Shown: positions 17,753-23,193, numbered from the stretch's first letter. The stretch: 64,000 bases of DNA from an uncultured delta proteobacterium (GCA_963711835.1 CAVQFQ010000009.1:18601-82600), one strand, 5' to 3'. Notes: generated by a model not told the origin, from the sequence alone. A program made the numbers and translations.

Positions 17753-18064
17753 CTAAGGTACTTTCGGAGATACATCAACTACGGTTACCGGTCCGGAGGG
17801 TACCGACCAGGAATGAAAAATCCCGGCCGGGATAAAATAGCCTTCCCCCGGGCCCAAAGAGCGGCTTTCTTCAGCGATAGTCAGGAGAAAGGATCCCTTG
17901 AGGATGATCCCGCACTGGTCAAAGGGATGAACATGGCCCGGATCTTTCAAGCCCGCTTCCAGGGTCATGACCGCCAGGAGAAGGTGCTCGCCGATTTGAA
18001 CGGCGCTTTTGATCCCGGGCCGGAAATCCTCCAGGGGCATCCGGGAAAAATCTAAAAATGGCAT
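17753..18064 (-). CDS. Cupin domain protein
   Basis: HVHPFDQ and GEGYFIPAGIFHS cupin motifs; RBS ggagg before ATG 18064. Confidence 0.82.
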   Translation of the reverse strand: MPFLDFSRMPLEDFRPGIKSAVQIGEHLLLAVMTLEAGLKDPGHVHPFDQCGIILKGSFLLTIAEESRSLGPGEGYFIPAGIFHSWSVPSGPVTVVDVSPKVP

Positions 18065-18112
18065 AAGGACCTCCAAAATAAAAATACCGGCTCAGATAAG
18101 GAACCGGCTGAA

Positions 18113-18172
18113 TTAATCCAAACAGCCCTTCCGGAACATTTGGTCTAAATAGAGCCTATACCCATCAGGCAT
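18113..18172 (-). pseudogene. Stub of a DUF5615 PIN-like toxin
   Basis: MPDGYRLYLDQMFR overlaps the DUF433 stop and resembles the start of its usual partner toxin; stops after 19 codons. Confidence 0.5.
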
Positions 18173-18398
18173 TGACGGCCCTTACCTCCGAATGATCGAG
18201 CGCCCCCCTGGCGTAATAGAGGACAGCCTGAATATCTTCTTTTTTTAATTCCGGATAGCCGGAAAGAATCTTTTCCCAAGATTCATCTTCGGCTATTTGT
18301 TCTAAAATAACCGAAATCGGGATGCGGGTCCCTTTAATTACCGGCCTGCCGTTACAGACCTTCGGATTTATCTCAATTCGTTCAATTAGGCTAAACAT
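18165..18398 (-). CDS. DUF433 antitoxin-like protein
   Basis: INPKVCNGRPVIKGTRIPI...YPELKKEDIQA. Confidence 0.9.
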   Translation of the reverse strand: MFSLIERIEINPKVCNGRPVIKGTRIPISVILEQIAEDESWEKILSGYPELKKEDIQAVLYYARGALDHSEVRAVNA

Positions 18399-18511
18399 AT
18401 CTTTGCCTCCAATGTCATTTCCTCTCTTCCATCACCAGGATCCAGGTTAATACCTTTTCTTCCTATCCGCAAGTCTTACAATTTCAAACCTTATTTCAAA
18501 GCAGTTCTTGA

Positions 18512-18548
18512 GTCGCAATCCCTTCTGAATCAGGTCATCCTTTCATGT
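18512..18548 (-). CRISPR. Orphan CRISPR-like repeat R2 (5' end degenerate)
   Basis: Minus strand reads acatgaaaGGATGACCTGATTCAGAAGGGATTGCGAC; matches the 20373 copy apart from one indel over the last 29 nt. Confidence 0.6.
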
Positions 18549-18748
18549 CCAATCAGCCTTTGCGCATAAATCAGGCAAGCTTGGATATCCTCGGGTTCAA
18601 GCCATGGGTAACCGGTTAATAGGGTTTCCGGCGTATCTCCGGCAGCCAACATCCCCAGAATGTGTTCCACGGCCAGACGATGACCGCGAATAATGGGCTT
18701 TCCCCCGAATATTTTGGGGTCGATGGTGATGCGATTTAATTCTCCCAT
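18530..18748 (-). CDS. DUF433 antitoxin-like protein ending inside the CRISPR-like repeat
   Basis: IDPKIFGGKPIIRGHRLAV...YPWLEPEDIQA; the stop codon lies within the repeat. Confidence 0.88.
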   Translation of the reverse strand: MGELNRITIDPKIFGGKPIIRGHRLAVEHILGMLAAGDTPETLLTGYPWLEPEDIQACLIYAQRLIGHERMT

Positions 18749-18771
18749 AAAAGTTTTCCTTTCAAACAACA

Positions 18772-18820
18772 ATACTCTTGACAAAATAGTATACAGATAA
18801 TATTCTCAGGTTAAGAGTAT
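18772..18820 (+). promoter_or_regulatory. Sigma70-like promoter with flanking inverted repeat for TA operon 1
   Basis: TTGACA (18778)-17 bp-TATTCT (18801); IR atactctt / aagagtat. Confidence 0.6.
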
Positions 18821-18838
18821 AATCTCGGGAACAGACAA

Positions 18839-19099
18839 ATGCCTAAATACGCAAAAAAAATCCAAATGTTGGTAACCGAAGACCAGTACCGGGAATTGGA
18901 GGAGATCGCCTCCAAGAAACATAAAAAGCTCGGCACCTTGGTCCGCGAAGCCGTTGTAGAATACCATTTAAAACAAAACAAGAAACGCCGAATCGCTGAA
19001 GCGGTGGACCGGCTCCTTTCCTTGCCGGAGGTTGAGGCCCCTCAAGATTACCAGGAGTGGGAAGCGGCCTATCTTCGGGAAAAATATTCCTGCCCATGA
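18839..19099 (+). CDS. RHH/CopG-like antitoxin (VapB-like)
   Basis: Strand-helix-helix N-terminus (KIQMLVTEDQYRELEE...TLVREAV); ATGA overlap with a PIN gene. Confidence 0.78.
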   Translation: MPKYAKKIQMLVTEDQYRELEEIASKKHKKLGTLVREAVVEYHLKQNKKRRIAEAVDRLLSLPEVEAPQDYQEWEAAYLREKYSCP

Positions 19100-19521
19100 C
19101 CGGTTCAACCTTCCAGTTCATAGATGCCAATCTGATTATGTATGCCTTAGGAGGTCCCCACCCTCTTCAAGACCCCTGCAAGAAGGTTTTTAAGCAGATC
19201 AAACAGGGGGTGGTCTTCGGGGTCATTACCAATACCGAAGTTCTTCAAGAACTCCTCTACCGTTACTTTTCCATCAGGAAACAGACCCTTGGTGAATTGG
19301 CCTATTCCTCTATGATTGATCTTTGCCAGGAAATTCTTCCGGTAACTGTCCAGGATACCGATCGGGCCTTGGAATTACTGAAAGAATATCCCATGATCAC
19401 TTCAAGAGACGCCATCCACGCCGCCACCATGTTAAACAACGGTATTAAGGAAATCCTCTCCACCGACCCTCATTTTGACCTCATCTCCGGCATCCGGCGA
19501 ATCAACCCGGCTAAGAATTAA
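19096..19521 (+). CDS. vapC: VapC PIN-domain toxin
   Basis: FIDAN, VLQE, RDAIHAA and STDPHFD acidic PIN motifs. Confidence 0.9.
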   Translation: MTGSTFQFIDANLIMYALGGPHPLQDPCKKVFKQIKQGVVFGVITNTEVLQELLYRYFSIRKQTLGELAYSSMIDLCQEILPVTVQDTDRALELLKEYPMITSRDAIHAATMLNNGIKEILSTDPHFDLISGIRRINPAKN

Positions 19522-19560
19522 ATTATGATAGACCAGACCAGGCACCCTCCTTGTTAACAC

Positions 19561-19606
19561 TTGATTGTTAATTACAACTATTATAAGATAAATTATAATT
19601 TAATCA
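19561..19606 (+). promoter_or_regulatory. Promoter/operator of TA operon 2
   Basis: TTGATT-17 bp-TAAGAT inside an AT-rich imperfect palindrome (ttgatt...aatcaa). Confidence 0.45.
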
Positions 19607-19613
19607 ATAAAGG

Positions 19614-19874
19614 ATGACTATTATGGCATTAGTTCAAATTTCTCCTAAGGGGCAGATTCTAATTCCAAAAAAGATCCGAAACAAATATGGTGTGATTCAG
19701 GGTGGGAAAGTTCAACTCATAGAGGGACCTGATGGAATATTGGTTAAACCGGCGCCCACGGACCCTATCGAGGCCGCCTGCGGATCCATCGAAGGGGATT
19801 TTTCCCTGACCGACGATCTACTGGATGAACGCCGTAAGGACAAAAAACATGAATCCCCCGATTATCCTCGATAG
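19614..19874 (+). CDS. AbrB/MazE/SpoVT-family antitoxin
   Basis: ISPKGQILIPKKIRNKYG swapped-hairpin motif. Confidence 0.88.
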   Translation: MTIMALVQISPKGQILIPKKIRNKYGVIQGGKVQLIEGPDGILVKPAPTDPIEAACGSIEGDFSLTDDLLDERRKDKKHESPDYPR

Positions 19875-20265
19875 TTTTGCCCTGCTGTGCTTCTTCCACA
19901 AGGAACCCGGTTGGGAAAAAGTTAAAACACTTTTGAACGATCTCTCCCGGAGGGGCGAGAAGGCCCTCCTTTCCCGGATCAACTGGGGTGAATTTTACTA
20001 TATCCTCCAAAGACGGGTTGGTCGGGATAAAACCCAGGAGGCCCTGTCCCTGCTGGATCAACTCCCGATTGACATTATTTCGGTGGATGATCCCCTCGTC
20101 CGCGAAGCTGCCGAAATCAAGGCCGAGCACCCTATCGCTTACGCCGACGCCTTCTGCGCGGCCCTGGCCCGACGCCATCAGGGGCGGGTCCTAACCGGGG
20201 ACCCTGAATTTAAGGCTGTAGAAAAATTGGTTCCCGTGCAATGGATAACCGGCCGGAAAAAATAA
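19849..20265 (+). CDS. vapC: VapC PIN-domain toxin
   Basis: ILDSFA, NWGE, YADAFCAA and LTGDPEF motifs. Confidence 0.9.
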   Translation: MNPPIILDSFALLCFFHKEPGWEKVKTLLNDLSRRGEKALLSRINWGEFYYILQRRVGRDKTQEALSLLDQLPIDIISVDDPLVREAAEIKAEHPIAYADAFCAALARRHQGRVLTGDPEFKAVEKLVPVQWITGRKK

Positions 20266-20372
20266 TCCGAGTTTTTGCCACCCTTGTCGATTATGACAAA
20301 TTCATGGCAAGGAAACATTAAACGGCAGGCTTATTTCTTATGGATTTGCTGAAGAATTACAAATATAGAAAA

Positions 20373-20408
20373 GTCGCAATCCCTTCTGATCAGGTCATCC
20401 ATTCCAAT
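20373..20408 (-). CRISPR. Orphan CRISPR-like repeat R1 with leader-like flank (about 20409-20600) and spacer-like segment (about 20335-20372)
   Basis: Minus strand reads ATTGGAATGGATGACCTGATCAGAAGGGATTGCGAC (36 nt), with an ATTGCGAC 3' end resembling type III repeats; non-coding AT-rich flank upstream; no cas genes in the window. Confidence 0.6.
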
Positions 20409-20607
20409 CGTGGGTCCGTTTTTTGAAAAATTATTTGGTACTTACGTACCATTTTTCGCCAACTCCCGCTAATACTATGCTCTTTCATTTGTGCCCCCTC
20501 CTTTCCGCACCAATAGCGCTTCAAGCAATCCAATACCGCCTCCAACGTTTTTCCCCTTTATATCTGAATTCCCTCCTTATCCTTATTTAAACCTAAACGG
20601 ATGGCTT

Positions 20608-20841
20608 TTATAAAGGGGTATTACTTCGAACAACAAACGGGTTCGGGTAGGCAGTATAATACGGCAGGTCGGAAAGTGCCGGAATGTCCTCGTCCGGGCC
20701 GATGGGGAATCCCTCGATCTTGCCGAAATTGGGGTCCTTCAACTTCTCGTGCAGCTTCTCCAGGAAGTGCTTCCGCCGCTCCTCGTCATTTGGGAAAGTC
20801 ATACCGAGACATTCAACCGGCTGGTTTTTCTTGGTTTTCAT
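20608..20841 (-). pseudogene. N-terminal fragment of a BREX-associated DNA methyltransferase
   Basis: VECLGMTFPNDEERRKHFLEKL...IEGFPIG.DEDI.ALSD.PYYTA.PNPF, then a premature stop. Confidence 0.7.
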
Positions 20842-21051
20842 CTCTTCTTCGAGGGATTTATCAAATAACTCCCCCTGCCCCGAAGGGTCCCGGAACAATC
20901 GCCGAGTATTAACATCTCTGCTTCTTCTACCGGCCATAGGGAAAGCCACTTAACCATTTTAATTAATTATGAAAACTGTTAATGCTCAACATGCCAATCA
21001 TGAGCATTTGCCTTGGTATTTGTTCGAAGCTAATGCGATTTTAATGCTCGC

Positions 21052-21099
21052 GCGCATAGAATTGCGCATAAAATAGTTTCTATGAGTAATTCTATGCGC
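21052..21099. terminator. Long hairpin directly after the AlbA_2 gene stop
   Basis: gcgcatagaattgcgcataaaa / ttctatgagtaattctatgcgc pair at 19 of 22 positions. Confidence 0.5.
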
Positions 21100-22814
21100 T
21101 ATCTTATAGAATACACATAGCGAGCCCAGCGCCTCTTTCCATTTATCCTGATTTGAGCATTCTCCCCCATGAGTTCATGCATTAATCTTCTGATTTGATT
21201 TCGATCATAATGAACAATTTGGCGGATATCGGCATTTGAAAGCCCCGGATCACCTCGCTTGGCCCGTTCCATCAGAATGCTTAGAACCCTGGTCTTGGCT
21301 GCCTCCCAATCGATTCGTCGGTCTCGCTCGGGGTGTCCTGGTCCGGCGAGACGACGATAGGTATCCGGCCGGAAGGACCAGTAGGTTCCCTTGCCTGTCC
21401 CCCCTCGTTCGAGATAAGACATCTGCTGTTCCATATCGGTTAATATATCTCTAACCTGGACTTCTGGGCGCTGGCAGAGGCGGGAAGCAGTTATGGTGTC
21501 AATCTCGGGGTGAGTCATTAGTTGCTGGAAAATCAAGAGATGGTCCACAGAAAATGAGCGTCCGCGCTGGTTTTCCTCAGCTACAAAAATTCGAAAAGCC
21601 GGGGAAAAATCACGTCGGTTAAACGTCACAGTAACCGACTCTCCGCTTTCATGGATCAGGGGTGGTTCCTTACCTTCGATCAAAAGGGCCTCGAACATCC
21701 GACCGATACCGAGGTTACTCCGATTTACCAAGCGCAATTTGGCTAAGGCATTAACCAGGAGGAGATTTCGAGCCGCCGGTTGATGGTGGAGAATGTTTTC
21801 GGGTGTAATGCCGGCAATAAACCCGCCGGGATTGCTTATCTCTAACTTCCCTTGGAACTGCTTGACGAGAACCGGACCCGAAAGTCGGTAATCTGCATGA
21901 CAAAGGGCGTTAAGGAGCACTTCTCGCAGGGCGATTTCGGGATAGGTCCGATACTCAAAGTGGAACATCCCCTGTTTCAAGGTTGTAATAGGATTGTCGG
22001 CATTGATCCGGTCCAACAACCGAAAAAGGGCAATAGCCAGGGCATCCGTCCCGTCGGCCCGATCGGAGTAGCGTGTATCAGTATCCATCCGCAAATGGGT
22101 CCAAACATATCCGGGAAACCAACGTCGAATAGCTGTTTCAGTTCCTGCCAGCAAGATGCCGGCCCGAGAAAGACGACCCGAACGCATCACTCCAATCTGA
22201 GCCAGTAGATCCTGGTCGGTCATCTGCAGCAATTCTTCAGGAGCCCGTTCCCGCCGGGCGGCGTCTCGAAGACGCTCCATGGCCGAGGCTGAAATAAAAT
22301 CTTGGGGTCGACCGTCTACATTTTCAGCGGTGAAATCGGTTTCACCCGTTTCAACCATGATTCGTCGGCGTAGCGTACCGGTTAAAGGTTGGCAATCCCT
22401 TCCAATACGGACCTTTCCCCCGCCTGAGGTGTCGGTGTATGGAGGGATTCCTGGGTAAACCTGCATGACCAAAATACGTCCTGTGCCTTCTGGAACCAAA
22501 AGTTCCTCGAAAACCGGCGTCAACTTAGGGTCCGTGGAATCATAGACAGTCTTTTTTAGGCGGTTCACATCAATTTCCGGGGGAACGCCAAGAATAGCCT
22601 TTCCCCTACCAATCGCCTTGTCGTTGACTCCAAATACTACCGTCCCCCCGCCACCGTTTGCCATACAGATTGCCATTTCGAGAACTTGAGACACGGCATC
22701 CTTTAGACTGCGGGATTTCCATTCTTTGAATTCGAGGTCTTGATCCTCAAGATCATCCGCCGAACGGATTTCGATTTCTGCAAGAAGTTTCTGGATATCG
22801 TCTCTACTGCGCAT
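21099..22814 (-). CDS. AlbA_2 (Schlafen-like) domain + HATPase_c_4/RecG-C-like + HTH protein
   Basis: EDQDLEFKE, MANGGGGTVVFGVND, LREVLLNALCHADY, ISNPGG and NLGIGRM motifs. Confidence 0.85.
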   Translation of the reverse strand: MRSRDDIQKLLAEIEIRSADDLEDQDLEFKEWKSRSLKDAVSQVLEMAICMANGGGGTVVFGVNDKAIGRGKAILGVPPEIDVNRLKKTVYDSTDPKLTPVFEELLVPEGTGRILVMQVYPGIPPYTDTSGGGKVRIGRDCQPLTGTLRRRIMVETGETDFTAENVDGRPQDFISASAMERLRDAARRERAPEELLQMTDQDLLAQIGVMRSGRLSRAGILLAGTETAIRRWFPGYVWTHLRMDTDTRYSDRADGTDALAIALFRLLDRINADNPITTLKQGMFHFEYRTYPEIALREVLLNALCHADYRLSGPVLVKQFQGKLEISNPGGFIAGITPENILHHQPAARNLLLVNALAKLRLVNRSNLGIGRMFEALLIEGKEPPLIHESGESVTVTFNRRDFSPAFRIFVAEENQRGRSFSVDHLLIFQQLMTHPEIDTITASRLCQRPEVQVRDILTDMEQQMSYLERGGTGKGTYWSFRPDTYRRLAGPGHPERDRRIDWEAAKTRVLSILMERAKRGDPGLSNADIRQIVHYDRNQIRRLMHELMGENAQIRINGKRRWARYVYSIR

Positions 22815-22816
22815 AA

Positions 22817-22903
22817 CTATTCCAACACGATCCGCACGTTGCCGGGCTCCTTGCCCTTGGTGAGTTGGTCCAGGTATTCCTCGAACCGTTTCCTCATCTC
22901 CGC
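22817..22903 (-). pseudogene. C-terminal fragment of a DUF6079-type (BREX-3 BrxC-like) ATPase
   Basis: Minus strand translates to [28 protein letters not shown], ending 2 bp before the AlbA_2 start. Confidence 0.6.
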
Positions 22904-23193
22904 TTCCTTTATAATGCTGCCGTGTAAAAAAGGCCCAAATCCTGATTATAGGAAAAGGGCCTTTTCATGTTCAACCAATCCTCCCCAAGTTAAGGTTAAA
23001 GGGAAAAAGAAAAGAAAAATTAGTAAGATAGAAAGGAAATAGCACAGCCATTCGGCTTTGTCAATGCCGGATAACATCCTAAATGCACCCCCTAATTTTC
23101 GACATAGGCTGTTTTTTATCGGTGTTTGTCGGTGGATTATGAATTGTTCACTTTGTTGATTCTATTCTTGATTTATACTATGGTAACTCAATT

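Follow-up and report, generated by a model that had tools for sequence, protein, structure and literature searches.

Two solitary type III CRISPR repeats around vapBC toxin–antitoxin genes: probable remains of an array in a decayed defence island

What are we to make of two CRISPR units that stand alone on a chromosome, with a set of toxin–antitoxin (TA) genes where a spacer would be expected? The question is raised by a 64,000-nucleotide stretch of DNA from an uncultured delta proteobacterium (GCA_963711835.1 CAVQFQ010000009.1:18601-82600), here called the window. A first-pass annotation, made from the sequence alone, had noticed two CRISPR-like repeats on its minus strand, bracketing a 1.8-kb block with two vapBC pairs and a DUF433 gene. 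It proposed either that TA modules had invaded and stabilised a decaying array, or that the repeats yield CRISPR RNA (crRNA)-like or antisense RNAs tying toxin control to Cas proteins encoded elsewhere. The answer that we hold to be probable retains the decay and leaves out the stabilisation: the repeats would be the leader-end and trailer-end remains of an array that first received vapBC and DUF433 genes at its far end and afterwards lost its cas genes and inner repeats. This would be the ordinary decay of an immune locus, a new example of a known phenomenon, in which the TA cargo outlived the lost type III locus.

Both copies are genuine type III CRISPR repeats. They lie on the minus strand at 20373-20400 and 18512-18540, one T apart, as had been seen at the outset, and align over 29 of 30 bases (E 2e-5 in a search of the whole assembly). 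The draft assembly (3.9 Mb, 28 contigs, 89% complete) contains no third copy, its next-best site having 7 mismatches in 29, and the spacing of the two, 1861 nt, is not that of a spacer: nothing in this genome has the regularity of an array of this repeat. The extension of the first copy to 36 nt also holds, as a full-length, leader-proximal unit of 36-37 nt at 20373-20409 (repeat 1), with 29-32 identities over 36-37 columns to the repeats of five cognate arrays; repeats of the family are 36-37 nt long throughout. The 24-25-nt core shared by the two copies leads to two arrays of the genome collection (L001 and L002), with 4 and 10 repeats and 32-41-nt spacers, which adjoin cas1 and cmr6 (Cmr6 in L002). 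In metagenomes it matches 12 stretches, namely ten arrays (some overlapping), a close relative of the present locus (L035) and a match within a coding gene (L038) that we attribute to chance. A relaxed form of the motif occurs in 17 of 401 genomes of the phylum, the reversed control in none. Among ten cognate loci that were fetched, and of which 75 of 141 open reading frames (ORFs) were scanned, five have Cas10, four only cas1, cas2 or cas6, and one no cas gene; Csm2-5 in genome G014 provide a further link to type III. The resemblance to type III repeats, noted in the first-pass annotation, is therefore supported by regularly spaced arrays with unique spacers next to type III cas genes, and its proviso that the sequence might match no CRISPR repeat family does not apply. 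Rfam returned no family at gathering score (best CRISPR match DR35, 18.6 bits against 35, E 4.3), and viral contigs contained no exact match to the repeat. The 5' handle of type III crRNAs is formed by the 8-nt 3' end of the repeat; both copies retain the whole conserved 3' part, this 8-nt end included, which is likely to be what a Cas6 would read.

What lies upstream sets the two copies apart. The non-coding flank of repeat 1, which had been described as leader-like, is a true leader by its score: on a matrix built from 13 cognate leaders it reaches 22.3 bits, against a leave-one-out range of -9.2 to 20.6, a value attained by none of 3000 AT-matched genome sites and none of 3000 shuffles. It shares with the cognate leaders a motif at -50 and an A-tract near -17, and extends on the minus strand over 20410-20632 (far boundary approximate), its distal end abutting a methylase fragment. 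The sequence upstream of repeat 2 scores -8.6 bits, and is no leader. Repeat 2 (18512-18540, minus strand) is present as had been claimed, but incomplete, consisting of the 3' 29 nt of the unit, with DUF433 codons in place of the 5' end. The gene that supplies them, DUF433a (18530-18748, minus strand, 72 aa), was rightly said to have its stop within the repeat. Its frame enters repeat 2 and ends 2 residues past the GHER motif, whereas 115 of 118 among the homologs listed continue for at least 8 residues past it. Lacking its 5' end and a leader, and cutting the DUF433a frame, repeat 2 is therefore a rearrangement junction that truncates this gene. The DUF433 codons expected at this point nearly match the repeat over 8 nt, a plausible microhomology for a deletion. 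A second, full-length DUF433 gene, overlooked so far, lies just outside the repeat pair at 18165-18398 (minus strand; Pfam DUF433, E 1e-22). In the cognate array of genome G010, trailer repeats carry an extra T relative to leader-end repeats, which is how repeat 2 differs from repeat 1.

The segments that follow the repeats say little of their former content. After repeat 1 there is indeed an AT-rich, spacer-sized segment (20336-20372, minus strand), as had been reported, but it may be mostly vapC2 flank: a contig of a related strain, from sequencing run X1, matches 19788-20362 with 6 differences and departs for its last 9 letters (a single contig end), and only some 10 nt (20363-20372) may be a spacer remnant. 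The segment after repeat 2 (18475-18511, minus strand, a length of 37 nt being assumed) is possibly a last spacer or trailer; no degenerate terminal repeat follows it, 53% of shuffles scoring as high. The search for targets that the annotation had recommended gave nothing above chance in phage or self sequence. Local self matches of the 37 nt after each repeat were at shuffle level (equalled by 53% and 45% of 200 shuffles), the best seed anchored on a TTN protospacer-adjacent motif (PAM) ran to 12 nt, as it did in 13 of 30 shuffles for each segment, and the phage collection gave best E values of 0.9 and 3 for the segments after repeats 1 and 2. Against viral contigs the segment after repeat 2 had no match; that after repeat 1 had a 23-nt exact match in four near-identical contigs, which does not extend (25-26 of 37) and was treated as chance. 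The spacers of G010 find only short matches in this genome, of at most 22 nt.

The genes between the repeats are in much better condition. Two vapBC pairs antisense to the repeats had been announced, and Pfam recognises two PIN domains and one AbrB/MazE domain among their products. On the plus strand are found vapC1 (19096-19521; PIN, E 2e-14), vapB2 (19614-19874; MazE_antitoxin, E 6e-6; TIGR01439) and vapC2 (19849-20265; PIN, E 3e-19), both toxin frames being intact. The first antitoxin, vapB1 (18839-19099, plus strand), is named by its position and its 4-nt overlap with vapC1; it has no match in Pfam, NCBIfam or the PDB, and its homologs precede vapC1 homologs in most loci. In each pair a PIN toxin gene is preceded by a small overlapping antitoxin gene, the layout of type II vapBC, and what we take to be the acidic residues of the PIN motif are visible in both VapC translations. 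We consider vapBC1 and vapBC2 as predicted type II TA pairs.

That TA modules sat in a decaying array, as had been suggested, is supported by the places where their homologs are found. G010 has both pairs, in the same order, beside csx20, Card1, a primase-polymerase gene, cas1, two cas2 genes and a cognate array of 87 repeats, and G014 has both behind a 3-repeat array and a csm operon. The order in G347 is array, vapBC1 antisense to it, one gene and a solitary repeat; in G392 it is array, a different vapBC family, co-oriented, an ATPase gene and a duplicated last repeat that stands alone. An array or cas gene lies within 1.5 kb of 3 of 12 vapB1 loci and 4 of 11 vapC2 loci, that is 6 of 22 with G010 counted once, against 0 of 17 loci of a control PIN family (Fisher p 0.027; a single, randomly drawn control family, related genomes that are not independent, and some loci cut by contig ends). 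The other 16 of the 22 show no CRISPR feature within this distance. Where a pair or a fragment of one lies on the trailer side of an array, it is antisense to the array in all five other cases (G014, G058, G302, a fragment in G325, and G347); the pairs of G010, G135 and G174 adjoin cas genes, not the end of an array.

Could the matching Cas machinery reside elsewhere in this genome? No cas match was found in 18001-21200, in keeping with the remark that the window has no cas genes. Profiles for RAMP proteins, Cas6 (two models) and Cas10 gave nothing above cut-off in the assembly; Cas10 palm matches under the cut-off, among them one on G000 C11, were not taken as Cas10. When 20 proteins encoded at cognate loci were used as queries, tblastn recovered nothing but cas1 and cas2 of type I-C, paralogs of the ATPase and, weakly, a single match to the N-terminal part of the primase-polymerase. 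The only array in the assembly is of type I-C (G000:C4:490321-495606, L006), with an unrelated repeat folding into a strong hairpin (-15.1 kcal/mol, against about -3 for the repeats studied here); its locus comprises cas2, a frameshifted cas1, a cas4-like gene and a cas7 cut by the contig end. Cas5d of this system was not found elsewhere in the assembly, though the I-C operon runs off its contig. The cognate array and cas6 that the first-pass annotation proposed to seek in the rest of the genome were thus sought, and neither was found in an assembly that is 89% complete. Absence of the cognate cas genes is not proven, because the assembly is incomplete and known to miss cas genes.

The wider setting tells of decay on a larger scale. 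In relatives, the cupin and DUF4301 genes that enclose the region lie close together (at most 0.6 kb apart in 4 of 8 loci; a fifth has a 2.2-kb insert, one has no cupin gene and two have it elsewhere), and 18.1-23.1 kb of the window can therefore be recognised as an island of about 5 kb, absent at the syntenic site of these relatives and having DUF433 gene b at its left end. The comparison with relatives lacking the TA block, which had also been advised, accordingly shows an empty site, and none of the eight loci has the repeats. Beyond the leader, the island carries on the minus strand the 5' fragment of a methylase gene of the BREX (bacteriophage exclusion) system, PglXI, covering residues 3-88 of 946 (20632-20880; tblastn, 64% to a G008 protein identified as PglXI by PADLOC), an intact gene for a Schlafen/AlbA protein with a RecG C-terminal part (21099-22814; Pfam; 77% over 570 aa to G008) and the last 34 codons of brxC (22820-22921; tblastn, 74% to a G008 protein identified as BrxC by PADLOC). 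All three match a BREX island in G008. As read from the sequence, two defence systems, CRISPR and BREX, are reduced to scars here.

We may understand the locus, then, as the outcome of a succession of events. The first would be the arrival, between the cupin and DUF4301 genes, of a defence island that comprised a BREX system and a type III locus. Type II TA pairs, which are mobile, would next have gathered behind or within the distal part of the array, detaching its terminal repeat as in G347 and G392; deletions, one of them likely via the 8-nt near-match between DUF433 and the repeat, would then have taken the cas genes, the body of the array and most of BREX. Genes that are likely costly to lose, the two vapBC pairs and possibly that of the Schlafen protein, would have remained intact, and homologous recombination would likely have carried the collapsed allele from one lineage to another. 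On this view the repeats would be inert scars. A single array that took an insertion and two arrays each collapsed are indistinguishable here. Several observations weigh against this reading. The leader is very well preserved, as is the whole conserved 3' part of both repeats. Passive decay does not account for the fact that both TA families lie antisense behind arrays. The incompleteness of the assembly, together with the missing Cas5d, means that a type III operon could be absent from the assembly only. The ancestral state, finally, is deduced from other sites, no genome having been found with an intact array at this one. If decay by loss it was, the locus provides a snapshot of a defence island in which CRISPR and BREX are left as scars and TA pairs are intact. 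The idea that the TA modules stabilised the array finds no support: neither the cas genes nor any internal repeat is left, and what the TA genes preserved is at most their own sequence and its immediate flanks, which argues, at least here, against the preservation of CRISPR loci by neighbouring vapBC pairs.

The junction at repeat 2 is shared, at the same site, by two other lineages, L035 and run X1 (only short pieces came from runs X2-X6 and X8). The block is about 99% identical across strains, and its flank 5-6% different. L035 has 19 differences in 315 positions to the left of 18511 against 7 in 916 to the right (p 4e-7), and X1 has 19 in 382 against 6 in 916 (p 2e-6), or 17 in 1194 when the patch 19428-19458 is included (p 2e-4); the breakpoint was chosen after seeing the data, and the X1 counts come from 40 of 43 rows. 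That patch, within vapC1, has 10 differences in 31 nt in X1, against about 0.7% around it, and is likely to have been recombined. L035 diverges from the window at 19514 and has no vapBC2 there; the block is therefore not a fixed unit. If these identity profiles are a guide, transfer of the TA side between lineages postdates the divergence of the flank, and probably took place by homologous recombination. Repeat 2 is unchanged in L035 and shows no difference among the listed X1 rows; with about 99% identity over the entire block, this does not speak for selection.

Could the remnant still do something? One might imagine that the leader drives a transcript running antisense through both vapBC operons, so that the firing of a CRISPR promoter lowers TA mRNA and releases VapC without any Cas protein. 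The intact leader, the antisense order in all five other trailer-side cases and the enrichment of the two families near CRISPR features speak in its favour, but no sigma-70-like promoter was found on the minus strand of the leader (a regional scan found 7 sites for 4.7 expected, not above chance), most homolog loci have no CRISPR feature nearby, three genomes have their pairs by cas genes instead of behind an array, the different family of G392 is co-oriented, and the association relies on a single control family and on kin that are not independent. Judged by these patterns, we consider this mode of control very unlikely. A broader version would make the two vapBC families of the phylum specialised CRISPR hitch-hikers, settling antisense behind arrays where read-through from the leader would determine how much of their mRNA is present and could free the toxin, the cas-free remnant keeping the switch and spreading with the last repeat and spacer as a recombination anchor; we regard it as unlikely. 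If true, such read-through would be a Cas-independent link of array transcription to toxin release, of which we found no mention in the open-access papers searched (the accessible part of PMC12737573 contains nothing on vapBC). The proximity of the two families to CRISPR features relative to the control family, with their antisense orientation, is a testable lead, and so is the recent spread. An explanation that we place lower takes the block for a mobile TA cassette whose site of integration or recombination is the CRISPR repeat, the two copies being att-like ends. The jump in identity near repeat 2 in L035 and X1, the departure of X1 10 nt from repeat 1 and the duplication seen in G392 would fit. 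Yet none of the island ORFs encodes an integrase, transposase or recombinase, the two copies are unequal, one being cut inside the repeat, their flanks are not duplicated, the content varies (L035 lacks vapBC2 at this place), relatives have an empty site with no repeat, and the breakpoint was picked after seeing the data; the att or target duplication that the annotation had mentioned as an alternative does not agree with these features.

The other proposal made at the outset, that the repeats yield crRNA-like RNAs (of the CreA, CreR or crlRNA type) guiding a Cas effector encoded elsewhere to control the toxins, comes lower again in our estimate. Both copies keep the 8-nt 3' end, the assembly is incomplete and a type I-C locus exists in the genome; against this, the assembly yielded no cognate Cas6, RAMP or Cas10, the best matches of the flanking segments are at the level of shuffles, and the I-C repeat is a strong hairpin, unlike those studied here. 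Least of all could the 1.8-kb block be a gene-sized spacer, integrated at the leader-repeat junction by Cas1 or by a fusion of reverse transcriptase (RT) with Cas1. The order leader, repeat, insert, repeat is what it would produce, but Cas1 integration duplicates the whole repeat, and repeat 2 has no 5' end, DUF433 codons accounting for the bases there. Genes on both strands of the insert preclude a copy of one mRNA, and the cognate Cas1 proteins scanned, from G010, G393 and G063, show Cas1 families only and no RT family. The locus differs in each of these respects from a gene-storing RT-Cas1 array, and we take this explanation as largely refuted. Decay of an array with TA genes at its far end remains the reading that we prefer.

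Systems already described offer both likeness and contrast. Repeat-like mini-arrays flanking type III loci, devoid of targets or conservation, were judged probably degraded and non-functional in the accessible part of 10.1101/2023.03.03.530964, which also reports a Francisella site where the locus was lost and one repeat unit and a degenerate repeat persist, able perhaps to serve as a recombination target. The repeats of the window resemble these in standing alone, with no detectable target and no cognate cas genes found; in contrast to what that text describes, a leader survives here, the two repeats are separated by 1.86 kb of sequence containing TA genes, and a truncated gene is fused to the second. 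In Sulfolobales, according to the portion of PMC4390879 at hand, vapBC pairs are interspersed in cas cassettes and were proposed to help maintain the system. Here too several vapBC pairs are associated with type III CRISPR loci in variable regions, but in a bacterial lineage, and they are still there when the cas genes are not, which for this case speaks against maintenance. A solitary repeat with a spacer-sized segment next to toxin genes recalls the CreTA, CrePA and crlRNA systems (10.1101/2024.12.27.630466; 10.1101/2024.01.05.574328). As far as the available excerpts go, however, the cases described are mostly of type I, situated within a type I cas operon or next to one, and pair with a PAM-adjacent promoter; in type I-C loci, crlRNAs are defined by pairing to a promoter that has a PAM (10.1101/2024.12.27.630466). 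Here the repeat is of type III, no cognate effector was found, no promoter match rises above chance, and the only cas locus found is the I-C one, on another contig; a CreTA-like or crRNA-like function is unsupported. The solitary repeat units of phages known as Racr (PMC10651486, as excerpted) are likewise isolated and in principle Cas6 substrates; the present copies differ from them in being chromosomal, within a defence island, with no exact match in viral contigs and no cognate system found to inhibit.

A number of minor observations were made along the way. A stretch near 20274-20310 weakly resembles the repeat (p 0.04 in one test out of two); we give it no weight as evidence. On another contig, an orphan copy, 96-98% identical, of the last vapC2 codons and about 40 nt of flank ends near that stretch (G000:C4:347636-347748), which suggests recent movement of the vapBC2 module. 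Homologs of vapB1 occur in four relatives, three of which (G008, G010 and G014) have a clear Cas10, found in 4 of 20 in all; the three belong to one genus and are not independent. In G392 the last repeat and about 60 nt of trailer are duplicated around the vapBC pair and its AAA/DUF4143 ATPase gene (L076:6700-9130, G392:C55), making it a cleaner candidate for repeat-mediated integration than the window. In the cognate array L041 (G010:C276), leader-end and trailer-end repeats differ at several bases, and an insertion sequence of two genes, transposase and ATPase, which we take to be IS21-like from its motifs, is lodged inside the array (L041:5196-7815). A gene combining tetratricopeptide repeats with a primase-polymerase recurs at the cognate loci L041, L036, L079, L080 and L084, usually just 5' of cas1, and AAA/DUF4143 ATPase genes recur at the edges of the same loci. 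In the window itself, a long inverted repeat with 22-nt arms spans the stop of the Schlafen-RecG gene (21052-21099) and is possibly a terminator, and the right edge of the island (22925-23070) has an intergenic element of about 120 nt with an inverted repeat, present at seven or more other sites of the genome.

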